This document shows, piece after piece, positions 1,944-32,000 of a DNA stretch of 32,000 nt. The DNA is taken from positions 404,017-436,016 of the forward strand of contig DIRZ01000003.1 in the NCBI GenBank assembly GCA_002421785.1, read 5' to 3'. Under the pieces are notes generated by a model that did no database searches, was not told the origin of the DNA, and saw only the letters and a program-made list of their open reading frames with translations. The translations under genes and the position numbers were made by a program. The stretch comes from Candidatus Saccharimonadota bacterium. Lineage in GTDB: Bacteria; Patescibacteriota; Saccharimonadia; Saccharimonadales; Saccharimonadaceae. The number at the start of each line of letters is the position of its first letter. Position 1 is the stretch's first letter.

Positions 1944-3050
1944 TTATGAAAACAGGCTATGCTTTTTTGCAGAATCAAACTGCTCGAGTAAATCACGCTG
2001 TTTTTTACTCAATTTAGTGGGTGTGTCCACTACAATACTCACAATGTGTGCACCGCGCGCTTCGCCGCGTAAATGCGGTACGCCATGGCCACTCAGCTTA
2101 AAGTCAGTGCCGCTTTGTGTACCCGCGGGAACCTTCATCGTCACTGTACCATCAACGGTCTCGACATCAATTTCCGTCCCGAGTGCCGCTGCAACCATAT
2201 CAACATGCTCTTCGCTGAGCACTAAGTAACCTTCACGCGTAAACTTCTTGTGGGCTTTGACCCGTATATGAACGTACAAATCGCCCTTGGCTCCGCCGCC
2301 GATTGCCTCGCCGCGCTCACGCAAGCGAATCGTCGCGCCATCATCGATGCCGGCGGGTATTTTAACCGTCACACTCACCGTCCGGCGCTCCGTTCCCTTG
2401 CCGCGACACACACTGCACACAACTTCTGGCACTTTGCCTTTGCCTTTACAGGTTTCGCAGGTTACAGCCTGTTGAATTTGTCCGAACATCGTATTCATCA
2501 GTCGCACCTGTTGTCCGGCACCCTTACAGGCCTCACACGTCTTTAAGCTATGGCCTGGTTCGACTGTTGTCCCATGGCAGTGGCTACACTCGTCGTCCAA
2601 ATTCATAGACAGCTTTTCTTCTTTTCCAAATACCGCCTCTTCAAATGTCAGGGTGACGCTCGTCTCTACGTCACGGCCCCTCGTGGGGCCGTAGGGCTGT
2701 TGGGCCCCGCCGCCAAAGAACTGGCTAAAGATATCTCCAAAGCCGCCCGCGCCATTGAAGTCAAAGTGAACGTCTTGCCCGTTGAAGTTAAAGCCTTCGA
2801 ACGGATTGCCACCCGCACCACCACCGGCGCCACCGCCCACACCCGCGTGACCAAACTGATCATAACGCTGGCGTTTTTGCTGGTCTTTCAAGACCTCATA
2901 GGCCTCGTTGATTTCCTTGAACTTAGCTTCATCGCCACCCTCTTTGTCAGGGTGGTGTTTCACGGCAGCTTTGCGAAACGCCTTCTTAATTTCATCTGCA
3001 CTGGCTGTTTTTGACACACCAAGCACTTCGTAATAATCACGTTTAGTCAT
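1944..3050 (-). CDS. dnaJ: Molecular chaperone DnaJ (Hsp40)
   Basis: J-domain with HPD (DYYEVLGV...HHPDK), a Gly/Phe-rich linker, and four CxxCxGxG zinc-finger repeats ([32 protein letters not shown]). C-terminal client-binding domains follow. Confidence 0.96.
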
Positions 3051-3060
3051 ATCTGTTATA

Positions 3061-3089
3061 AGTATAGTAAACTAGCACTCGAAATACAA
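3061..3089 (-). promoter_or_regulatory. Putative dnaJ promoter embedded in CIRCE
   Basis: Read on the minus strand: TTGTAT (complement of 3084-3089, inside the CIRCE spacer), exactly 17 nt, then TATACT (complement of 3061-3066), then 10 nt to the ATG at 3050. No Shine-Dalgarno in between. Confidence 0.45.
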
Positions 3090-3098
3090 GAGTGCTAA
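3072..3098 (-). promoter_or_regulatory. CIRCE operator (HrcA binding site) upstream of dnaJ
   Basis: CTAGCACTC-N9-GAGTGCTAA matches 17 of 18 positions of the CIRCE consensus TTAGCACTC-N9-GAGTGCTAA. It lies 22 nt upstream of the dnaJ ATG and 1 nt from the stop of the upstream gene. Confidence 0.88.
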
Positions 3099-3099
3099 C

Positions 3100-4746
3100 C
3101 TAAAAATGCTGACGGATGTGATTGAAGCTATATTCCCACGTTGCATCGGTTTTCTTGTGCGGGTTGAAGATGTTAAGTGGATCATACAGTTGCTTTATCT
3201 CTTTCATATAGCCAAGAACGTTCGGGCTATACATCGCCGAAAGCCATGGGCCACGAATCATGCCGTCGTTATGTTCCCCACTCACGCTCCCTCCATATTT
3301 TATGACCAGGGTGTTCACTTCTTTCATGGCAGGTTCGAACTTGGCGCGTTCCGCCGGGTCTTCAATTTTCATGAGCGGTATAACATGGAAATTTCCATCG
3401 CCAAGATGGCCAGCAATCGTTGCGAGCAACTTGTACTTTTTCACAATCTCACGCAGCTGCGGCAAGAACTCGCTCAGGCGTGCCGGTGGCACAATCAAGT
3501 CATCAATAAATGGCGCAGTGTGCTTGTCCTTCACCTTACTGCGCAGCAAGTTAAAGCTTTCGCGTCGCATCAACCAAAATTTACGTCCGGCCGCCTCTGT
3601 GGCATCTTCTTCCATATAGCTAAAGTTATGGCCTGCCAAGTGCTGTTTTGCCGTATGAATCTTCACTTTTACCTCATCTGCGCTGTTGCCAGTAAATTCG
3701 ATGAGCAAAATGAGCTTTGGCACTCCACGAAACAATGCCAGACCATCTGGAATCAGCTGCAGACACATTACCATCCACGTTACAAAACCCAGTCGCTTAA
3801 TAAATGCAAAGATAAATTTAAAGCTGAGCCACAAGGTATTGTCGTCAAAACATTCAAACGTCGCAGGTTTTTCTGCGAGCACTGCTGGAATGACTTCCCC
3901 CAGGTTATCAATCGATTTCATGTAGCAAACGAGCGTGCCGCTGTGGCTCGGCTTGGGAACCAGCGAAAGCGTTGACTCTGTGGTAATTCCCAGCGTTCCC
4001 TGCGCGCCAACAAACAATTTTGTTAAGTCAAAAATACCCGTATCTCGGTTCCAAATGTTCCATAGGTGATAACCGGTAGAATCTTTGCTGACCTTTGGGG
4101 CTGCGGCTCTAATTTCATCATAATGGCCGTCCAGTAGTTCGAACGTTCGTCGATACAAATTGCCTTCAAATGTGTCTTGTCCCATCTTGGCGTTCAACTC
4201 ATCGCGCGTGAGTGGCTTCACCTCATACTCATTGCCATCGCTCAAAACAACGCGCAGATGAGTCACGAAGTTGTCGGTCTTACCAAACTGGAGCGACTTT
4301 TCGCCACCGCTGTTATTATTCACGATTCCACCCATGCCCGCGAGCTCACGGCTTGCGGGGTAGCTAGGCAATATGCTGCCATGCTTCAGCGTTTCAACTT
4401 CGAAATCTTTATACATCGCCCCTGGCTGTGTCGTTGCGGATTCAGCGGAAACATTCGTGACGGCGGTCATATGACGACTGGTATCGACAATAATCGAATC
4501 GTTGATTGCCGCCCCTGACATATCCGTTCCGCGCGAGCGTGCCGTGAGGCTTAGGTTGGGGACGTCTTTTTTATGCTCAGCAACAAATGCTACCAGTGCT
4601 TTAATGTCATCGCCACTTTTAGGGAATACCACGACCTGAGGCTTTAACTCAAATAAGCTTGCGTCATGACTGTAGAATTCTCTGGTTTCATCACTTGCGT
4701 CAACGTCGCCTTGAAGAATCTTGCTTAGCTCACCCGGTAGATCCAT
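3100..4746 (-). CDS. FAD-linked oxidase/dehydrogenase (GlcD / D-lactate dehydrogenase-like)
   Basis: N-terminal FAD_binding_4-like features (VVFPKSGDDIKALVAFV, ARSRGTDMSGAAI). C-terminal FAD-oxidase signature (GGSVSGEHNDGMIRGPW). 548 aa with an ATG start. Confidence 0.75.
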   Translation of the reverse strand: MDLPGELSKILQGDVDASDETREFYSHDASLFELKPQVVVFPKSGDDIKALVAFVAEHKKDVPNLSLTARSRGTDMSGAAINDSIIVDTSRHMTAVTNVSAESATTQPGAMYKDFEVETLKHGSILPSYPASRELAGMGGIVNNNSGGEKSLQFGKTDNFVTHLRVVLSDGNEYEVKPLTRDELNAKMGQDTFEGNLYRRTFELLDGHYDEIRAAAPKVSKDSTGYHLWNIWNRDTGIFDLTKLFVGAQGTLGITTESTLSLVPKPSHSGTLVCYMKSIDNLGEVIPAVLAEKPATFECFDDNTLWLSFKFIFAFIKRLGFVTWMVMCLQLIPDGLALFRGVPKLILLIEFTGNSADEVKVKIHTAKQHLAGHNFSYMEEDATEAAGRKFWLMRRESFNLLRSKVKDKHTAPFIDDLIVPPARLSEFLPQLREIVKKYKLLATIAGHLGDGNFHVIPLMKIEDPAERAKFEPAMKEVNTLVIKYGGSVSGEHNDGMIRGPWLSAMYSPNVLGYMKEIKQLYDPLNIFNPHKKTDATWEYSFNHIRQHF

Positions 4747-5199: not shown

Positions 5200-5976
5200 A
5201 TGGACGCGCCAACGCCTCATCAGCCTCACGGGCAGCCACATATACCTACCGCAGTCGTGCCCGCCCCTTATACCGATAGCTACGGTATTGCGAGCATCGT
5301 CCTAGCGCTATTCGCGTTCACCATTCCGGGCCTTGTCGTCGGCCTAATTGGCGCGAGCAAAGCCAAACGCATGCGTGTTTCTCCAGCCGTCTCGCGCGTG
5401 GGCTGGATACTAAACCTCGTCTTCCTAGTCATCTCTACCGTCATTCTTATTGCCGTCATTGCGTTCGTCGTTTCACATCCCGAAGAAATCAAGTCTGAGC
5501 TCTCATCGCTCAAAGATGCCTCCCGAACAACTGTTGCAGCCGGGGGTGCACGACTACTGGTGCCTATTTCTTTCGAGTCTATCGCAGAAGATTACCCTGA
5601 CGCCGATATTGCCCAGGGTGATTTATTTAGCGAAGCCTATGTCATTACGTACCGTGAGTCGAGCGCTGACATTGCATCAAACACAACAGTGAGTGACCAC
5701 GCAAACCTGTCGTATCAGCAATTTATAGCTGACCCCGGATATAGCGAACAGTCCCGCACGCAGCTTACTGCCGGGAAGGTGGCCAATCCTTACGGCTACG
5801 AAATTGCTGACTATCGTATTGACGCAACCTATGAAGGACACAAGTATGTCTACGTCATACGTTATGTACGAACCGCCCAAAGCTATTACACAGTAATGAG
5901 CTGGACCATGCCAAGCCACCTTGACGACAACCAGACAACGCTCTACAACATCTTGGGGTCTTTCCAGGAACTATAG
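5200..5976 (+). CDS. Membrane-anchored protein with DUF4190-like N-terminal helices and an unknown extracytoplasmic domain
   Basis: The ATG lies 2 nt after the FKBP stop. The N-terminus YGIASIVLALFAFTIPGLVVGLIGASKAKRM plus a second TM helix resembles DUF4190. The remainder (about 150 aa) is unrecognised. Confidence 0.6.
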   Translation: MDAPTPHQPHGQPHIPTAVVPAPYTDSYGIASIVLALFAFTIPGLVVGLIGASKAKRMRVSPAVSRVGWILNLVFLVISTVILIAVIAFVVSHPEEIKSELSSLKDASRTTVAAGGARLLVPISFESIAEDYPDADIAQGDLFSEAYVITYRESSADIASNTTVSDHANLSYQQFIADPGYSEQSRTQLTAGKVANPYGYEIADYRIDATYEGHKYVYVIRYVRTAQSYYTVMSWTMPSHLDDNQTTLYNILGSFQEL

Positions 5977-6013
5977 TCCGCGTCTTATTGTGGTAATGTT
6001 TTACCCAGCGCGC

Positions 6014-6019
6014 TATACT
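6014..6019 (+). promoter_or_regulatory. -10 hexamer TATACT 7 nt upstream of the ATG at 6027 (leaderless-type)
   Basis: GCGCTATACT-AGCTGCA-ATG with no SD. Confidence 0.4.
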
Positions 6020-6026
6020 AGCTGCA

Positions 6027-7124
6027 ATGGAACCCTTCTTTCGTACTACTGGCGTCATACTCGGTACACTTCGTGCCGAGTATCGCCAACTCGCAAATCG
6101 CTACTTTGGTACCGTGGAACGCCTACCTGGCGACGCGCGAGCCATTTGTCAGCAAACGGTTGATCGACTTTGGGAAGGTGATTTCTATCGAACCAGTCTG
6201 GGGCACTTTGATTTCTTTTGGATGCGAGATTTTGGCACCGTCGCACAATCTCTCGTGCGGCTAGGCGAAACAAAGCGCGTCCACCACACTCTGCAATTTG
6301 CCCTTCGTCACTATCGACGGGCAGGTGCGGTCACACTATGTATCGACTCGGTCGGCAACTGTTTTGATGCTCCGGGCAAAAGCATTGATGCGCTCCCATG
6401 GCTGCTTCACAGCCTTCATGTCAGCGGCTACGAACTCAACAAGTCAGACATAACGTTCCTACACAGGGAGCTTCGTCGCTACCGGAAAAAGTATCTCGAC
6501 GATAATGGCCACATACGAAGTATGAAGTATGCCGAGATGCGTGACGCCGTGATACACGACCGTAGCGCCTACTCCGTGGCACTGGTGGCGCGGCTGGCCT
6601 ACTGTAGCGAGCAACTCCAGCTTGAATTTCCTTACAAAATGAGCCAATACCGTGAAAAGTTAATAGCTCATTACTGGAACGGACACTACTTTAATGCAGC
6701 CTATCGAAACACCGCATTTAGCGCCGAGTGCGCGCTCTTCCCGTTTTTCCTGGGCATCGTGGATGACGCAACAATGGCCGGCCAAACATTCGATTACATT
6801 AATCAGCAGCGTCTCAATGAGCCCTACCCACTCATTTACACCAACACGCCAGAAAAGTTTCGCTACAACTGGTGGATGACCGGACCTTGGATGCCAAATT
6901 ATCAAGGAGATACCATATGGAGCTGGCACGGGGAATACTACCTCCATTTACTCAAGCGATACAAGCGCCCTGAATACAAGCGAGAGTATAAAAAATTCTC
7001 TGAAATGATTGAATTACACGGAAGTTTTCCAGAAATGCTTAACCTCGATGGAAGCTGGTATAACGCACCAGTATACAAGGGCGATCCTGGCATGGTCTGG
7101 GCAGCATTATTTCTGGAGCTCTAG
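6027..7124 (+). CDS. Six-hairpin (alpha/alpha)6 glycosidase-like protein (GDE_C/GH15/GH63-like), paralogue 1
   Basis: FDFFWMRDFG motif typical of (alpha/alpha)6-barrel glycosidases. The C-terminus has DTIWSWHGEYYLHLL and GSFPEMLNLDG. It shares these blocks with the 11134-12603 product. The family call rests on motif memory only. Confidence 0.55.
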   Translation: MEPFFRTTGVILGTLRAEYRQLANRYFGTVERLPGDARAICQQTVDRLWEGDFYRTSLGHFDFFWMRDFGTVAQSLVRLGETKRVHHTLQFALRHYRRAGAVTLCIDSVGNCFDAPGKSIDALPWLLHSLHVSGYELNKSDITFLHRELRRYRKKYLDDNGHIRSMKYAEMRDAVIHDRSAYSVALVARLAYCSEQLQLEFPYKMSQYREKLIAHYWNGHYFNAAYRNTAFSAECALFPFFLGIVDDATMAGQTFDYINQQRLNEPYPLIYTNTPEKFRYNWWMTGPWMPNYQGDTIWSWHGEYYLHLLKRYKRPEYKREYKKFSEMIELHGSFPEMLNLDGSWYNAPVYKGDPGMVWAALFLEL

Positions 7125-7166
7125 CATCGACCGGCCGCAGGGCCTGAATATTTACTCTAAGTAGGC

Positions 7167-7172
7167 TATAAT
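7167..7172 (+). promoter_or_regulatory. -10 hexamer TATAAT 6 nt upstream of the ATG at 7179 (leaderless-type)
   Basis: GGCTATAAT-TTTACT-ATG with no SD. Confidence 0.45.
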
Positions 7173-7178
7173 TTTACT

Positions 7179-8384
7179 ATGCGCATTGCAATCTTTACCG
7201 ATGTTTACCTTCCCCTCCGTGGCGGTACCCAAACATCAATCCACAACCAAAAACTCATGCTTGAACAGGCGGGACATTCTGTCACTATTTTCACGACACC
7301 CCATCCTGATGCTGAAGGACGAGCCGACATTGTGACAGTACAAGGCGTTAACTTCACTACCAAACGTGGCGAACAGCTCCAGCTCACAATGCCCACCCCT
7401 ACCAGACAAATCCGTAACGAGTTATTAAGCCGTCAGATAGAACTCGTTCACGTCCAGACAGATTTCGGTATTGGTATTAGTGGAGCGGCGGCTGCCAAAA
7501 AACTGAATCTGCCGCTTGTCTACACATTTCACACTCTCCTTTGGGAGCAGATTGAAACACGGCCTCGCGGCGAGCAGCTTGCCGTCCACTTGTTCGAAGC
7601 TCCGATGCAAAAGACACTTACCGTACCCGAGAACTTCCATGTCGAACGTTTGCCCGGCGAACGCTCATACGCCTACAAATTCCGCCGACACGTTTGCCTT
7701 CTTGCCAGTCAAGCAGATGTCGTTATATCGCCATCACCACACATGGCAGAAAAATTCAAAGCATGGCTTCCTGCGGGAACTATCGTCACATCGCCCAATA
7801 CCGTCACCACGCCGCCGCACCAACAAACACTGCCCGCGGTTCCCACGTTCCTATGGATGGGGCGCATGATGCCCGAAAAGCGCGTACTCGATTTTTGTCA
7901 CGCCATTCAACTCATTAGCAAGTACACAGACGGGGCATTCCACGCCGTCATTGTGGGCGATGGCAGCGACCTAGAGGAAGCCAGTGAGTTGCTGCGAGAA
8001 ACACCTCAAGCGACACTCGCTGGATCAATCCCCAACGAACACATTAACTCGTACATTGACAACGCAAGCGCGCTTGTCATGACATCCCAGGGATTCGATA
8101 ACCAACCAATGGTTATCACTGAAACAATTGTCGGAGGACGCGGTTTTGTGAGTATGGATAACGACCTCGTACAAGATGTCGCGCCTGGTGTGGGCGTGTT
8201 TCCTGGCGGCACTACACCTGACGACCTAGCGCGTTGCCTCGCCGAACTCATTGACAAGCCTCACCTCCTCCAACAAATGTCTGATACCGCTGCAGCTATC
8301 GCGCCCCACTACAACGCAGCGCAAGGGCTGGAGCGCCAACTAAACGCGTATCAACAAGCGCTACAGCACTTCCACCAAGCCTAA
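7179..8384 (+). CDS. GT-B fold glycosyltransferase, family 4-like
   Basis: The N-terminus MRIAIFTDVYLPLRGGTQTS is typical of the Glyco_transf_4 domain. The C-terminal half has a Glycos_transf_1-like core (FLWMGRMMPEKR..., SQGFDNQPMVITETIVGGRG). Confidence 0.8.
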   Translation: MRIAIFTDVYLPLRGGTQTSIHNQKLMLEQAGHSVTIFTTPHPDAEGRADIVTVQGVNFTTKRGEQLQLTMPTPTRQIRNELLSRQIELVHVQTDFGIGISGAAAAKKLNLPLVYTFHTLLWEQIETRPRGEQLAVHLFEAPMQKTLTVPENFHVERLPGERSYAYKFRRHVCLLASQADVVISPSPHMAEKFKAWLPAGTIVTSPNTVTTPPHQQTLPAVPTFLWMGRMMPEKRVLDFCHAIQLISKYTDGAFHAVIVGDGSDLEEASELLRETPQATLAGSIPNEHINSYIDNASALVMTSQGFDNQPMVITETIVGGRGFVSMDNDLVQDVAPGVGVFPGGTTPDDLARCLAELIDKPHLLQQMSDTAAAIAPHYNAAQGLERQLNAYQQALQHFHQA

Positions 8385-8418
8385 ACTTTCCTCGGCTGCA
8401 TTGCTCCAGAGCGAATCC

Positions 8419-8943
8419 CTAGGACCCCATGCAATAGTCGCCACCACTTTCAAGCCCGACAACAATGCGATATGCCCTTGCACTTTCAGTGCCATCACAG
8501 TTTACACCAGGAGTATAAACAGCAATGGTTGATGACGGCACCCCGCCGCCGGATACGGTGTCAATAACCGAGTAATCAAGCCCGTCTAGCCAACTTGCTT
8601 CCGGTAGCTCGCCCCGATAATTTGTCATGAAGTCCACTACCTCTGTACTCGCCAGGCTCACGTCTGCTTTGCGGCCAGTGTCGCGTTGACTGCGCTGGAG
8701 CGCAGGGATACCGATAAAGATCATCGCGAATATCAATATGCCCAGTAGCAACCCCAAGATTCCCGTGGCAAGCCCCGCAATTGCCATTCCGCGGCGAGCA
8801 GATTTCAGTGCAATAATACCAAAAATGATAGCAAGAATCGCCAGGATAGCCGACAAAAAAGGAACAAAACATAGCACAATCGAGATAATCCCCAAGACGA
8901 GCGCCGCAACTGCAAGGCCATTATTGTTGTTCTGTGGTGCCAT
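8419..8943 (-). CDS. DUF4190-type membrane protein with small extracytoplasmic C-terminal domain
   Basis: NGLAVAALVLGIISIVLCFVPFLSAILAILAIIFGIIALKSARRG plus further TM helices. A strong SD (AAAGGAGA) lies 8 nt upstream of the ATG at 8943. Confidence 0.7.
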   Translation of the reverse strand: MAPQNNNNGLAVAALVLGIISIVLCFVPFLSAILAILAIIFGIIALKSARRGMAIAGLATGILGLLLGILIFAMIFIGIPALQRSQRDTGRKADVSLASTEVVDFMTNYRGELPEASWLDGLDYSVIDTVSGGGVPSSTIAVYTPGVNCDGTESARAYRIVVGLESGGDYCMGS

Positions 8944-9013
8944 TACTGATATCTCCTTTGTTATTACTCTTCACTATACCGAAGTAACCCGCTAATCCCA
9001 AGCTTTCCCACGT

Positions 9014-9043
9014 AAAAAGAGTACGCAGATGCGTACTCTTTTT
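9014..9043 (-). terminator. Rho-independent terminator after dnaK
   Basis: AAAAAGAGTACGC-AGAT-GCGTACTCTTTTT forms a 13-nt perfect inverted repeat with a 4-nt loop, with U-runs on both strands. It lies 15 nt downstream of the dnaK stop. Confidence 0.75.
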
Positions 9044-9057
9044 CGTAAACGAGCTTC

Positions 9058-10956
9058 CTACTTCTCGTCGACTACTTCGCCTTCTACGGCATCGTCATCT
9101 TTTTTTGTTTTCTTCTTATCCGCATCGTCACCCTCAACTGGCGCTTCTGCCTCTGCTGATTGCTGATACATCTTGGCACCGATTGGCATAATTGCTTCGT
9201 TAAGCGCTTTTACCGCCGCCTCGAGTTCATCCTTGTCGGTTGCATCTTTATGCTTTTCCGCTTCGGCGACTGCGTCTTCAATGGCTTTTTTATCGTCGTC
9301 ACTGATTTTATCTTTGTACTCATCAGGCATTTTCTTGGCCTGGTAAATAGCATTTTCTAGTTGGTTTTTAGCATCAACTGCTTCACGCTTTTTCTTGTCA
9401 TCATCAGCATGGAGCTCGGCCTCTTTTTGCGCCTTCTCGATGTCTTCTTTGCTCATGTTGCCTGATTCCTGAATGGTAATTGACTGTTCTTTACCGGTAC
9501 CCTTGTCTTTGGCGGTAACATTCAGCAGACCATTCGCGTCAAGATTAAAGGTAACCTCAATCTGTGGAACACCGCGTGGGGCGGGAGCAATTCCATCAAG
9601 CACAAACTTACCGAGCGACTTGTTATCGGCAGCAAACTCACGCTCGCCTTGCAGTACATGAATTTCAACTTGCGGCTGGTTATCACTTGCCGTACTAAAC
9701 GTTTCTGACTTACTCGTCGGAATCGTGGTATTGCGCTCAATCAATTTCGTACTCACACCACCCATCGTTTCAATACCGAGGCTCAGTGGAGTCACGTCAA
9801 GTAGCAACACGTCTTTTACGTCACCGCTCAGCACCCCACCCTGAATAGCTGCACCGATTGCGACCACTTCGTCAGGGTTAACGCCCTGCATTGGGTCTTT
9901 ACCAAACAGCTTTTTAACTCGCTCAACAACAGCTGGCATACGGGTCATACCGCCGACGAGTACAACTTCGTCAATATCACCCTTCGAAAGTTTCGCATCT
10001 TTCAGTGCCTTTTCAACTGGGCCGTCCAAACGATTAAGCAAATCCGCTACCAGGCTTTCAAGCTTCGCACGAGTAAGTTTTAGCTCGAAGTGCTTCGGGC
10101 CATCAGCGTCAGCCGTAATAAACGGAATGTTTACTTCGTACTCTGTCGTGGTCGAAAGCTCTTTCTTCGCTTTTTCGGCTTCGTCCTTCAGACGTTGCAT
10201 CGCTGCATTATCTTTTTTCAGGTCAATGCCATCAGTCTTCTTAAACTCATCGATAAAGTGGTTCACAATCGCGTTGTCGAAGTCTTCACCACCCAGGTGC
10301 GTGTCACCGTTTGTGCTTTTTACTTCGAACACTCCATCACCGAGCTCCAGGATTGATACGTCGAATGTACCACCACCAAGATCGAAGACAACAATTTTTT
10401 CTTCTTTACCCTTGTCGAGGCCATACGCGAGCGCAGCGGCAGTTGGCTCATTAATGATACGCTTGACTTCGAGTCCGGCAATTTTACCGGCGTCCTTTGT
10501 TGCCTGGCGCTGAGAATCGTCAAAGTACGCAGGTACAGTAATGACTGCTTCTGTTACTTTTTCACCCAGGAAGGCTTCAGCATCGGCTTTAATTTTACTC
10601 AGAATCATTGCTGAAACTTCTTCAGGCGTATAATCCTTGTCACCCATTGTCACCGCAACGCCTGTTGCGTGTTTCACAATAGCAAACGGCATAATGTCGA
10701 TATCTTTTTGAACTTCTTTGTCGCTAAATTTACGACCGATAAGTCGTTTAATACCATAAATAGTGTTTTTGGCGTTGGTCACACGCTGACGCTGTGCAAC
10801 CTGACCGACAAGTCGCTCGCCACTTTTATTTACCGCAACGACACTTGGTGTCGTACGGTTACCCTCTGCATTCGCAATAACCTCTGGTTTACCGGCCACC
10901 AAATAGGCAAAGGCGCTGTTCGTTGTGCCGAGGTCAATTCCAATGATTTTACCCAT
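9058..10956 (-). CDS. dnaK: Molecular chaperone DnaK (Hsp70)
   Basis: Hsp70 signatures [21 protein letters not shown] and [10 protein letters not shown]. 632 aa with an acidic C-terminal tail. SD AAGGAGAAG upstream. Confidence 0.97.
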
Positions 10957-23366: not shown

Positions 23367-23443
23367 GGCACCGTAGCTCAGCTGGTTAGAGCGCAGGACT
23401 CATAAGCCTGAGGTCACAAGTTCAATCCTTGTCGGTGCTACCA
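23367..23443 (+). tRNA. tRNA with CAU anticodon (elongator Met, or Ile2 if lysidinylated)
   Basis: 77-nt cloverleaf folded by hand:
- Acceptor GGCACCG/CGGTGCT (G1:U72).
- D arm GCTC-AGCTGGTTA-GAGC.
- Anticodon loop CTCATAA.
- Variable loop AGGTC.
- T arm ACAAG-TTCAATC-CTTGT.
- Discriminator A and an encoded CCA.
There is no C1:A72 mismatch or GGG/CCC anticodon stem, so it is not an initiator. TATAAT lies at 23348-23353 upstream. Confidence 0.85.
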
Positions 23444-28458: not shown

Positions 28459-28480
28459 TTTCTTGGTTGCGGGGGCAGGA
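28459..28480. repeat. Direct repeat (att-like), distal copy of the tRNA 3' end
   Basis: TTTCTTGGTTGCGGGGGCAGGA is identical over 22 nt to 31964-31985. Further right, CTGCGACC is also shared (28493-28500 vs 31993-32000). In this copy the T-loop segment is replaced (ATTGGTCACATT vs TTTGAAC), so it is a non-functional tRNA 3' remnant. Confidence 0.8.
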
Positions 28481-28546
28481 ATTGGTCACATTCTGCGACC
28501 CCGAAACTTCACGATTGAAAACAAGTTTTCATCGGAAGGTTTCCTT

Positions 28547-28571: not shown

Positions 28572-28617
28572 ACCTACGACCTGACGGGTCGCAGCTTCAA
28601 CCAGCCTCATAACCAAG

Positions 28618-28639
28618 AAAAAAGCCCCACCAAGGTGGG
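28618..28639 (-). terminator. Putative rho-independent terminator of the islet operon
   Basis: Minus strand reads CCCACC-TT-GGTGGG followed by GCTTTTTT. It lies about 115 nt downstream of the stop at 28756. Confidence 0.5.
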
Positions 28640-28643
28640 ACTG

Positions 28644-28656
28644 TTTTCTTGGTTGC
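28644..28656. repeat. Third, partial copy (13 nt) of the att core
   Basis: TTTTCTTGGTTGC is identical to 28458-28470. Twelve of these nt (TTTCTTGGTTGC) also match 31964-31975. Confidence 0.4.
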
Positions 28657-28755: not shown

Positions 28756-30183
28756 TTAATCCCAGATCTTATTCTCTTCATCGTTTACTGGAAAGATGAA
28801 TGATGACTTTCGCTTATTTGTAGGTAAAGCGACATCATGCTCCATTTTACTAACATAGGGTATAAGTATATCTTCTATGGTCATAAATTCAGCACCTATA
28901 CGTGTAAACATTTCCATGCCTACTTTTGCTACAAATCCAGTGTCAATATTACTTAACGTAACTACAAGATCACGCTCAGAGGAGCCTCTGAATAGTTCAT
29001 TACCACCGTATCGAATATCTTCGTATGGCTTACGATCATCTGGAATATCTATATCCAGCTTCCAACCTTTAGTAGCTAGTTCGTGTTTGAGTTGAGTGAT
29101 AGATAACACTACATGTAGGTATAACCCACCCGTCATAAGGTCAATTCTATCTTCTGGTGAATATGGATAAATGGTGTATGGAGCTTTTCCTCTCATAACT
29201 AAGCTATCCATTTTCATTGCAAGGTAGTCATAATTGGAGAAAAATAAAGTCTCAGTATCATCACTAAATGGTTTTTCTCTCGAAGTTATCATTGAAAGGT
29301 CAATTTCCTTTTTTTTAAAATCAACAACTTCAATATCGATATAGCTTGCGGGTTGGGCGTGCCCCAACCCGCTTTTTCTAGCATCTTTTATACACTGACG
29401 CACATCATCATGAAAAGTAGATACAGGCTCCCTAATCCTTCTCACGCTGGCTGGATTATCATAATTACCAATTTGATCTTTCTCCATCAATAATTGAGCC
29501 TGAAATAATCTATATTCTTGGGCAGACAGCTTCATGGATTTATCAATTTTTTTAGAGATAGTACTAGGTGTGATTAACTTATTAGTCTTGATTTCCGCAA
29601 GGTGGGGTATATCACCAAACTTACGTACCATAGACAAATCACCAACAAGAAATTGGTTCGTTACGTCGTGCATTAGCACGAAGGCACCGTTATCCATAAC
29701 GTTGTGGGCATAATGGAACTCTGCAGCACGACCTATCTTTGGGCCATCAGGTGAGGATATAAAGCCTGGTGTATTCGCCTCTGCAAGTATCCTTAGCCTA
29801 GCCCTATCATATCCAAGTGTCCTCCATGCAAGTCCATCGGCAATTTCTCTGTAACCTACTGCAATCAGTTTATTACGATGTGCCTGCACGAGAAGACTCT
29901 TATCGCTAGACTCAGCTGCTAGCTTCCGCCCCTTTGTTATAAGTGGCTCTGACTGCTCAAGTGCGATATAGATTGCCTTTTGAATATCAAAATGTCCAAC
30001 AGGATCATTAATGAGTTCAGGATCCAAGCTCATTTTCATCATTAGCTTCATATGGTCTACAAACTCATAATAGTACTCATTACTAATGACTTTACTAACG
30101 TATCGTAATTTGCGTAAATGCTCACGTAAAGTCCTAGGGCTGTTGGAGCTTTTCTTTTTTCGTCTAGATACATTTGATCCCAT
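28756..30183 (-). CDS. Islet protein B: unknown 475-aa protein with basic N-terminus and a PD-(D/E)xK-like motif (candidate nuclease effector)
   Basis: The long ORF is open from 30309. I prefer the ATG at 30183 (MGSNVSRRKKK...), which lies 22 nt after the stop of gene A with AAGAG upstream. Alternatives are 30225 and 30309. The motif FLVGD-x14-EIK (29587-29640) follows a hydrophobic strand. AT-rich codon usage. No family recognised with certainty. Confidence 0.7.
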   Translation of the reverse strand: MGSNVSRRKKKSSNSPRTLREHLRKLRYVSKVISNEYYYEFVDHMKLMMKMSLDPELINDPVGHFDIQKAIYIALEQSEPLITKGRKLAAESSDKSLLVQAHRNKLIAVGYREIADGLAWRTLGYDRARLRILAEANTPGFISSPDGPKIGRAAEFHYAHNVMDNGAFVLMHDVTNQFLVGDLSMVRKFGDIPHLAEIKTNKLITPSTISKKIDKSMKLSAQEYRLFQAQLLMEKDQIGNYDNPASVRRIREPVSTFHDDVRQCIKDARKSGLGHAQPASYIDIEVVDFKKKEIDLSMITSREKPFSDDTETLFFSNYDYLAMKMDSLVMRGKAPYTIYPYSPEDRIDLMTGGLYLHVVLSITQLKHELATKGWKLDIDIPDDRKPYEDIRYGGNELFRGSSERDLVVTLSNIDTGFVAKVGMEMFTRIGAEFMTIEDILIPYVSKMEHDVALPTNKRKSSFIFPVNDEENKIWD

Positions 30184-30205
30184 ATACAATACTCTTAATC
30201 TCTTC

Positions 30206-31597
30206 TTAATTAAATGGCTCTGCATTCTGGATAAAGTCAGCAAGTTCACCTCTCCACTGACCTTTATGCCAAAACTGTCGACCAACTCGACTTCCCATAT
30301 CATCAACACAGTTTATAGCATATGCTATCTGAGGTGGTTGTGAGTCAAAGACTTTTCCTCGTGTGTCGGCATCGAGAACTATGTCTCGCATCATAGGCAT
30401 AATTCGAGTTTTTTCATAAAATCCAAATGAAGTGTAATAATCACTGTCATCACTACGCTTCATATGATCTACGATCATAAGACATGCTAGATAGTCAAAG
30501 CTAACAATATATGTACGACCCTGATCATCATCCCAACCCAATAGCTCCTTATACATTAAGTCCTGTCTAAATAGACGTGTAGTTGCAGCTAAGATGCTTC
30601 CGTCATCTTGCGGAGTGTAATTTTGCCTTGCCGACATTGTAAGTGCATGGCGATACCAGTTACTATAATACTCACCGTCAGCACCATTCACATTTTGCAG
30701 TGCAATCGACTTCACCAAGTCATACCTCTTCGCTTCAATGCAGGCACCCCCCAATAGCGGCAGTCTAACCAGAATGCTATACCACAGCTCCACTGGGTCA
30801 AATCCATTGTTTAATCTCCAGTTGCCACGAGAGTCAAAACCAAGACCGTATATATCATGTACTGTGGTGAGCGACAGATTGAATACTTTATCGTTCTCGT
30901 CATCGATTGCTTCGATACCAATGCGAATAATCTTATCAAGAGACACAACTATATCTGGTTCAGTTAGAGTTGCATCGTTAAGCTTTGATCGAATAAGACT
31001 TAGCTCCGCTTTAACCTCGGATTTTATATGGCGATAGTTTTCGGTACCGCTTGGCTCTAGGAAGCTAAGTTCTTTGATCCAAGTCGCCCTTTCTTTACTG
31101 ACCTGAGATGCGATGATTCGCCTAATATCGTGCTGCCGCCATCTTTCGCTCGCACTACCATGGCGTACAAAAACTTCACTCGATCTGAATATGAGTTTGA
31201 TTTTACCATTTTTTTCGTATTGACCATCTGCTTTTAATACTACAAAGCCATCCCTGTAACCCTCGCATTCGATTAGTACGAAATTATGACCATCAAATTT
31301 GACACTTGAAACATGTACATCGAAAGGCTCATCGATATACTTTTTAAGCTTTGCTCTTAAAGTTGTTTCGTCGAATTTGTCGTATAGCCCATCAGTAAAC
31401 CTTGTCCCGAACCCACCATTGTCATCGGCACCAATCAGCAAAGAACCGCCGCCGCTTGAGAGCATTGCAGCGATATCTTTTGTTATTTCAATAAGGTCTG
31501 CCTTATCATCTATATCAAGTGATTGTTTGTAATCAAGTCTCTCATGCTCAGATCCTTGACCTAACAAAGCTCTAATTTTCTGCTCTATGTCTAGCAT
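30206..31597 (-). CDS. Islet protein A: AlbA_2 (Schlafen-like) N-terminal domain fused to an unknown C-terminal domain of about 290 aa
   Basis: Residues 14-165 fit the AlbA_2 pattern: ERLDYKQS...ITKDIAAMLSSGGGSLLIGADDNGG...HNFVLIECE...EVFVRHGSASE. A strong SD (AAAGGAGAA) lies 8 nt upstream of the ATG, and TATACT lies further upstream. Confidence 0.75.
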   Translation of the reverse strand: MLDIEQKIRALLGQGSEHERLDYKQSLDIDDKADLIEITKDIAAMLSSGGGSLLIGADDNGGFGTRFTDGLYDKFDETTLRAKLKKYIDEPFDVHVSSVKFDGHNFVLIECEGYRDGFVVLKADGQYEKNGKIKLIFRSSEVFVRHGSASERWRQHDIRRIIASQVSKERATWIKELSFLEPSGTENYRHIKSEVKAELSLIRSKLNDATLTEPDIVVSLDKIIRIGIEAIDDENDKVFNLSLTTVHDIYGLGFDSRGNWRLNNGFDPVELWYSILVRLPLLGGACIEAKRYDLVKSIALQNVNGADGEYYSNWYRHALTMSARQNYTPQDDGSILAATTRLFRQDLMYKELLGWDDDQGRTYIVSFDYLACLMIVDHMKRSDDSDYYTSFGFYEKTRIMPMMRDIVLDADTRGKVFDSQPPQIAYAINCVDDMGSRVGRQFWHKGQWRGELADFIQNAEPFN

Positions 31598-31647
31598 AGT
31601 ATGGGTTCTCCTTTTGTAATTAAGTATACGGTAATATAGTAGGCACT

Positions 31648-32000
<353 letters not shown>

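Follow-up and report, generated by a model that had tools for sequence, protein, structure and literature searches.

A prokaryotic Schlafen gene and an unannotated neighbouring gene on a tRNA-Met island of Saccharibacteria

Results

Two genes on an AT-rich islet

The window analysed here, i.e. the whole 32,000-nucleotide (nt) stretch of DNA from a Candidatus Saccharimonadota bacterium (GenBank assembly GCA_002421785.1, contig DIRZ01000003.1, positions 404,017 to 436,016), ends in an AT-rich islet. The GC content drops from ∼0.55 to 0.40, from ∼28500 to the window end. Two genes lie there on the minus strand, hereafter named A and B. Gene A (30206-31597, 463 amino acids (aa)) encodes a prokaryotic Schlafen (pSlfn), an established kind of protein, as assessed by the list of open reading frames (ORF), the PF04326 profile, an AlphaFold2 (AF2) model and Foldseek. 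Gene B (28756-30183, 475 aa), which was delineated using the ORF list, its homologues and a profile search, belongs to an unannotated family. An initial annotation of this DNA had proposed that A is a sensor-like nucleic acid binder that feeds a nuclease, B, within an undescribed two-gene defence module. Our analysis points instead to A and B being neighbours in a defence hotspot, likely co-transcribed, and not an obligate sensor-effector pair.

Gene A encodes a Schlafen protein with a complete catalytic motif

The AlbA_2/Schlafen domain that the initial annotation had recognised in A is borne out by profile search. Residues 17-151 match PF04326 (AlbA_2) with a score of 42.6 bits (cut-off 25.3, E = 1e-10), in keeping with the definition of a pSlfn domain as a PF04326 match of >100 aa above the Pfam threshold (PMC13056530). 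In the same work, an Ex4(E/D)xK motif, which marks catalytically competent Schlafens, defines 5,930 pSlfns. In A, alignments of the family and of CbCash place this motif at the codons for E17-H-E-R-L-D22-Y-K24 (31526-31549, minus strand). Each residue of the E17/D22/K24 set is conserved in 26 of the 28 A-family members, the two exceptions being P0046, in which the N terminus differs, and P0047, in which it is absent. When the A family profile was aligned to CbCash, a CRISPR-associated Schlafen tRNase (PDB 9ylu; Weickert et al. 2026, PMC13462974), these three residues matched E17/D22/K24 of CbCash residue for residue; the sequence match of CbCash to A covers only ∼50 residues (E = 0.18). Mutants of the CbCash triad, which coordinates Mg2+ at the scissile phosphate, no longer cleave tRNA (PMC13462974). 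Because A retains the complete Schlafen catalytic triad, it is expected to be an effector and not a mere binder. It is therefore likely, as predicted from its motif and architecture, that A is itself the nuclease effector and carries a sensor fused to it, which is at odds with the role of passive sensor previously given to it.

The predicted structure agrees with this assignment. An AF2 model of A built from 28 homologues (predicted local distance difference test (pLDDT) 88.6) displays an AlbA_2/Schlafen α/β fold followed by a long helix and then by an all-helical domain (residues 188-456). When used in Foldseek searches, this model matched DIP2311, the tRNase domain of SAMD9 (9o0d) and the N-domains of SLFN5/11/13/14, with probabilities of ∼1.0 and E-values between 3e-4 and 2e-2. 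Both the model and the matches thus place the Schlafen core fold in A. Identity to the closest relatives is uneven along the protein, with 68-69% in the Schlafen domain and 85% (P0019) or 73% (P0021) in the C-terminal domain. This mosaic is opposite to the pattern seen in distant homologues and suggests either inter-domain recombination or a fast-evolving nuclease domain.

The remainder of A is an all-α C-terminal domain (residues 188-463; 30209-31036, minus strand), as defined by AF2 secondary structure and alignment, in which W314, R316, H317, D368 and Y388 are invariant. It has no match in Pfam or among PDB sequences, in agreement with the initial annotation, which had left this part unassigned. 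PDC-S65 was matched weakly, in one A homologue only (E = 0.008). Weak PADLOC matches to Csm6/ApeA prompted us to consider a HEPN domain, which was rejected because these matches span residues 365-422 rather than the invariant R316-H317, and there is no Rx4-6H motif. The C-terminal domain is conserved at full length in 48 GTDB species, and its presence makes A a fusion of the kind that characterises pSlfns. Indeed, 97% of pSlfns are fused to putative sensor domains, 17% of them to unannotated ones, and single-gene pSlfns have conferred protection against phages in E. coli (PMC13056530). A Schlafen of E. lactis whose C terminus contains no known domain is a validated single-gene abortive-infection defence (PMC13552941). 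The C-terminal domain of A is thus a putative sensor/regulatory domain.

A and B travel together in one narrow clade only

The proposed module predicts that homologues of A and B co-occur. To define a non-redundant set of A-homologue loci outside the clade in which A and B are adjacent, we combined 48 GTDB species with loci L011, L012, L069 and the Saccharibacteria relative of L015 (n = 52). The GTDB species belong to Saccharibacteria, Chloroflexota, Actinomycetota, Acidobacteriota and Gemmatimonadota, and include one Micrarchaeaceae archaeon; A-family genes were also recovered from several metagenomic contigs. With a broad hidden Markov model of the B family (within ∼6 kb, E ≤ 1e-3), a B relative was found near an A homologue in 0 of the 52 loci, and no conserved neighbour of A of any kind was found. 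The A-B pair is restricted to three closely related lineages, i.e. the window, L064 (A 80% and B 89% identical) and L068 (A 72% and B 89%), in which the gap between the two genes is 22 nt in the window and 20 nt in the other two. The Micrarchaeaceae (DPANN) archaeon, which is also a reduced-genome episymbiont, has a full-length A-family gene (L037, 6001-7323), which suggests transfer between domains of life.

Conversely, at least seven distinct contexts contain B but not A. It stands alone in L008-L010 and on the Streptomyces plasmid pSV2, the context in L008 being a copper ATPase operon, which is not defence-like. Elsewhere, B lies behind unrelated genes that encode proteins of 314 or 153 aa, or an AAA ATPase. 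The 314-aa gene (L006, 7057-8001) and the 153-aa gene (L065, 5540-6001) both overlap the start of the B homologue by one base; neither protein has a family match, and the 314-aa one contains an NSYKHG stretch. We also looked for kinship among the alternative partners of B (314, 153, 369 and 73 aa), which was dismissed as they resemble neither A nor one another.

The most direct comparison comes from two relatives, L063 and L014, in which the same tRNA-Met hotspot contains a B homologue that is 88-90% identical, and gene A is cleanly absent. Comparison of window 30192-31631 with L063 7774-7900 and L014 5906-6030 showed that the 84 nt found upstream of A in the window (89-90% identical) directly join the ATG of B in these relatives, i.e. 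a promoter-B arrangement versus promoter-A-B. At this junction, a TATAAT lies 7 nt before the ATG of B, and the mRNA from which B is translated there may thus be leaderless or nearly so. In L014, the B homologue (88% identical; 5893-7424) is split into ORFs of 230 and 259 aa, so that it is a pseudogene with a frameshift, unless the assembly is in error. L063 (9341-10655) and L014 (7673-8782) also contain, between B and the shared terminator region, two genes that are absent from the window and whose products have no family match, namely a hydrophobic protein of 73 aa and a protein of 369 aa that terminates in CxxC...CxxC. Since A and B are each found without the other, each must function in the other's absence, and A is a cassette-level insertion/deletion. 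Considering the 0/52 co-occurrence, the presence of B elsewhere without A, and the absence of A upstream of B in these relatives, A and B are not a fixed pair.

The islet is a tRNA-integrated island that carries a recombinase remnant

The islet is delimited by two copies of a 26-nt direct repeat, identified by a repeat search, which are identical at 25 of 26 positions and bound 3.5 kb. The distal copy (28459-28484) forms the far boundary of the islet, whereas the proximal, att-like copy (31964-31989; GGTCGCAGGTTCAAATCCTGCCCCCGCAACCA) includes the 3' terminus of a tRNA-Met(CAT) gene. Only the 3' part of this gene, which was read from the sequence, lies in the window (32000-31968, minus strand), as the gene continues past the window end; it is complete on the source contig (L001, 9552-9629). 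Owing to this truncation, neither ARAGORN nor Rfam called the tRNA-Met in the window. On the opposite strand at this end, a tblastn search with the recombinase of L063 as a query identified a remnant of a large serine recombinase gene (31725-32000, plus strand), limited to the C-terminal ∼92 aa, which match residues 261-352 of the query with 65% identity (E = 6e-41). This remnant, which overlaps the 3' end of the tRNA-Met, is presumed to be the former mobility gene of the island, now a pseudogene fragment. The islet therefore combines foreign composition with a recombinase remnant and with direct repeats that duplicate the 3' end of a tRNA, i.e. all the features of a tRNA-integrated island. 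The initial annotation was thus right in ascribing a foreign composition to the islet and in locating it at a tRNA hotspot, but its description of A and B as the only cargo overlooked the recombinase remnant, which lies inside the islet as well.

Three tRNA-Met(CAT) genes are found within ∼10 kb of the source contig (L001 8851-8926, 9552-9629 and 18155-18231). The third corresponds to window 23367-23443, and only the middle one is used as an island attachment site. Just inside the distal repeat, there is a degenerate inverted segment of the tRNA-Met 3' end (28587-28624, plus strand; GGTCGCAGCTTCAA..., 13/14 versus the tRNA), which runs into the terminator hairpin described below and could be left over from a previous integration.

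In related genomes, islands of the same type are better preserved. A serine recombinase adjoins the same tRNA-Met in L063, where it is N terminally shortened (355 aa), and an intact 524-aa serine recombinase is encoded in L064 (3-1574, minus strand). The island of L064 is organised as recombinase, PDC-M04A/B and promoter-A-B-terminator; PDC-M04A (DUF3800) and PDC-M04B (2916-4175; E = 9e-75 and 2e-26) form a complete candidate defence pair. The same tRNA-Met site carries A alone in L011 and L015. In L012, the A homologue lies in another serine-recombinase island and is adjoined by a second complete candidate pair, HEC-01A (AAA_15 ATPase) and HEC-01B (DUF4276) (7901-9688). In the few loci examined, A is thus associated with defence islands and mobile elements, and the defence-like context suggested initially is upheld. 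With changing cargo on islands of the same type (PDC-M04, A alone, A-B or B without A), this site behaves like a defence hotspot with exchangeable cargo. The islet in the window is a stripped-down, probably immobile form of the island, retaining one promoter-like site, two genes and one terminator.

Transcription signals

The spacer between A and B (30184-30205, minus strand) is 22 nt long, as previously noted, when B is taken to start at ATG 30183. A terminator scan found none in this spacer, and A and B are therefore likely to be co-transcribed. Upstream of A, a consensus scan identified a promoter-like site, TTCATA-18-TATACT (31652-31623, minus strand), which is followed by AAGGAG and the ATG of A. 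Matches of this kind are not more frequent in the region than in shuffled sequence, and the weight of the site comes solely from the conservation of the stretch in relatives, since region 31632-31715 is 89-90% conserved where B directly follows. Downstream, 101 nt past the stop codon of B, a terminator scan and an inverted-repeat search identified a bidirectional terminator hairpin (28611-28654), with a core hairpin at 28642-28623 (minus strand) that extends to 21-nt arms with 90% complementarity. The -10 element, ribosome-binding sequence and terminator that had been attributed to the unit (TATACT, AAGGAG and the hairpin) are thus all present; it is as a promoter that the first of these lacks enrichment over shuffled sequence. 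A second hairpin, perfect and GC-rich, lies inside the AT-rich gene B on the opposite strand (29348-29372, plus strand; GCGGGTTGGG-CGTGC-CCCAACCCGC followed by TTTTT), within a weakly conserved stretch of the protein.

Gene B defines a large family with an almost invariant charged core

The full ORF of B (28756-30309, minus strand) encodes 517 aa from a GTG. We assigned the start to ATG 30183, which yields 475 aa, because homologues begin at MGSN(I/V)SRR and because the sequence upstream of this ATG in L063 and L014 bears no relation to gene A. Close homologues of B number 17. A profile search identified 701 representative clusters (at 50% identity) with E ≤ 1e-3, including 319 with E ≤ 1e-10, nearly all of 420-480 aa. 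No B relative was found in GTDB species genomes, in phage records or in IMG/VR, the last of these even for a distant subfamily, whereas two loci only were found in metagenome contigs of the Joint Genome Institute, and plasmid-borne relatives were limited to three Streptomyces plasmids. A word-index search with a broad B profile found no further relatives, and no names for B relatives were found in the source databases.

When 56 diverse members of the family (∼20% identity) were searched against Pfam, NCBIfam and PADLOC, no model matched consistently. The PHROG family phrog_14906, a phage family of unknown function, matches 18 of the 56. A weak PHROG "endonuclease" match in B itself covers residues 162-228 (E = 0.022), and isolated matches of this kind occur in 2 of the 56 members. 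Searches of PDB sequences with the B profile, both full length and core, revealed no solved relative; the only matches were to designed helical proteins and a spurious one to an ABC-ATPase H-loop.

Alignment of the 56 members revealed that D116, R121, D173, D182, K199, Q222 and P335 are invariant, and that position 197 is Glu in 53 members and Asp in three. The segment with D173, D182, E197-x-K199 and Q222 (29518-29667, minus strand) includes the D...ExK motif FLVGDLSMVRKFGDIPHLAEIK and is a putative PD-(D/E)xK-like site. The invariant D173 and Q222 may correspond to additional acidic and Q motifs in RecB/Cas4-type PD-(D/E)xK members. Of the two features initially reported for B, the D...ExK motif is therefore conserved family-wide, whereas the Lys/Arg-rich N terminus is not conserved among homologues. 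On the basis of this motif, PD-(D/E)xK-like nuclease activity is the chemistry we favour for B, at roughly even odds.

Discussion

A has clear counterparts among known defences. With pSlfn defences such as RorSlfn5, EcoSlfn7 and the E. lactis Schlafen (Perez Taboada et al. 2026, PMC13056530; PMC13552941), it has in common the PF04326 domain and the Ex4(E/D)xK motif, a second fused domain that is presumed to sense phages, a single-gene organisation and a location on mobile defence islands beside a serine recombinase. It differs from them by its C-terminal domain (∼275 aa, all-α, with an invariant W-x-R-H), which is not Ig-like, DUF262, histidine kinase or of any other annotated type, by its occurrence in reduced-genome Saccharibacteria and by its likely co-transcription with an unrelated downstream gene. 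The triad occupies the same positions in CbCash as in A. However, Cash carries a fused Csx15 cA4 sensor and is linked to type III CRISPR, whereas A has neither a Rossmann-like sensor nor CRISPR nearby. The fold of the nuclease core is that of mammalian SLFN11/13/14 and of the SAMD9 tRNase domain (Foldseek probability 1.0), with which A would share its presumed outcome, i.e. tRNA cleavage that blocks translation. The eukaryotic SLFNs and SAMD9 are much larger, two-lobed proteins that also contain helicase or other domains, and their identity to A is only 11-17%.

For B, the likeness is more limited. As in PD-(D/E)xK nucleases, an acidic residue ends a hydrophobic stretch (GD182) and is followed 15 residues later by E197-x-K199. 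In contrast, neither profiles nor structure comparisons match B to a member of this group, the α-β-β-β-α-β core is not resolved in its model, and it combines a long bundle of helices at the N terminus with a C-terminal α/β domain without known analogue.

The reading that we prefer, with a probability of about 0.6, is that of a decayed serine-recombinase island in which a Schlafen tRNase (A) and a separate module (B) are stacked as neighbours. A serine-recombinase-borne island would have inserted at the 3' end of tRNA-Met and then decayed to the 3.5-kb remnant. The C-terminal helical domain of A would keep the Schlafen nuclease off until a phage cue is perceived. Once activated, A would cleave tRNA through E17/D22/K24, and the resulting tRNA depletion would lead to translation arrest of the abortive-infection type, without the need for a second gene. 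B would independently attack nucleic acid through its D173/D182/E197/K199 site, as a metal-dependent nuclease of the PD-(D/E)xK type. A would have slotted between promoter and B in this lineage, or would have been lost from there in relatives, and co-transcription would simply stack two defences.

Several points weigh against this picture. AlbA_2 domains are also found in proteins without known immune role, and ∼30% of pSlfns have no known defence genes nearby (PMC13056530). As regards B, the assignment as a nuclease comes from the motif only. Its AF2 model (predicted template modelling score 0.83, pLDDT 77) is unreliable at residues 138-148 and 185-203, and Foldseek searches of PDB and BFVD with this model, which has low confidence across the motif, found no match. 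Together with the lack of a consistent match in Pfam, NCBIfam and PADLOC, this leaves the nuclease fold initially proposed for B unconfirmed. Finally, functional coupling within the A-B clade is possible because the 20-22-nt gap and the lack of an internal terminator are maintained despite an identity of 72-80% in A, although such coupling is not needed to explain the data.

If there were coupling, A and B would be a true interdependent two-gene defence in this Saccharibacteria clade, e.g. with A cutting tRNA and B cutting DNA, or with B regulating or licensing A. Such a system would account for the short gaps, the single promoter and the single terminator, and for the maintenance of the pair in three lineages (the window, L064 and L068). 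The tight coupling that B often shows to a variable upstream gene likewise hints at a constant partner to exchangeable modules. We nevertheless regard interdependence as unlikely, as none of the 52 more distant A-homologue loci contains a B relative, L063 and L014 have B behind the same promoter but lack A, B is found by itself in at least four further contexts, and the characterised pSlfns are self-sufficient. A related and equally doubtful idea is that B represents a new, fairly widespread nuclease family of defence systems or mobile elements, built on a D-D-ExK-Q core, which acts as a constant module with exchangeable partners, i.e. the Schlafen tRNase here and the AAA ATPase or the 314-aa and 153-aa proteins elsewhere. 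A-B would then be a dual system that targets both RNA and DNA, of a hitherto undescribed kind.

The scenario of the initial annotation, in which a non-catalytic A detects phage DNA or RNA and activates a PD-(D/E)xK effector B, is very improbable in our view. It is true that AlbA_2 domains bind nucleic acids in SAMD9 and SLFNs, to which the model of A is matched by Foldseek, and that the D...ExK motif of B is conserved and accompanied by the weak PHROG "endonuclease" matches in 2 of 56 members. However, A keeps the full catalytic triad of active Schlafen nucleases, the two genes do not co-occur beyond one clade, and the fold of B has found no confirmation. It is also quite improbable, if somewhat less so, that neither gene has a role in defence, A being a nucleic-acid-binding regulator or an RNA-processing enzyme and B a maintenance or replication gene of mobile elements, both of them hitch-hikers. 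The ∼30% of pSlfns without defence neighbours (PMC13056530), the Streptomyces plasmids and phrog_14906 matches of the B family (18/56) and the copper ATPase operon in L008 would fit such a scenario. It is contradicted by the candidate defence systems present on the same islands (PDC-M04 and HEC-01), by a patchy, hotspot-restricted and cassette-like spread that is typical of defence cargo, and by the conservation of the catalytic motif of A. The stacking of a Schlafen tRNase and a separate module thus remains the reading that we favour.

What is new in A is the combination of an uncharacterised, putative sensor domain and a probably unusual host, as Schlafen defence itself is already known. The promoter-A-B versus promoter-B polymorphism provides a natural experiment on the shuffling of defence cargo at one tRNA hotspot. 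B is an inexpensive candidate for testing, since it represents an unannotated family with invariant charged residues that rides defence hotspots. If A is active, Schlafen immunity by tRNA cleavage would extend to the reduced-genome, episymbiotic Saccharibacteria, and a new helical regulatory domain, conserved in 48 species of at least six phyla, would join the sensors associated with Schlafens.

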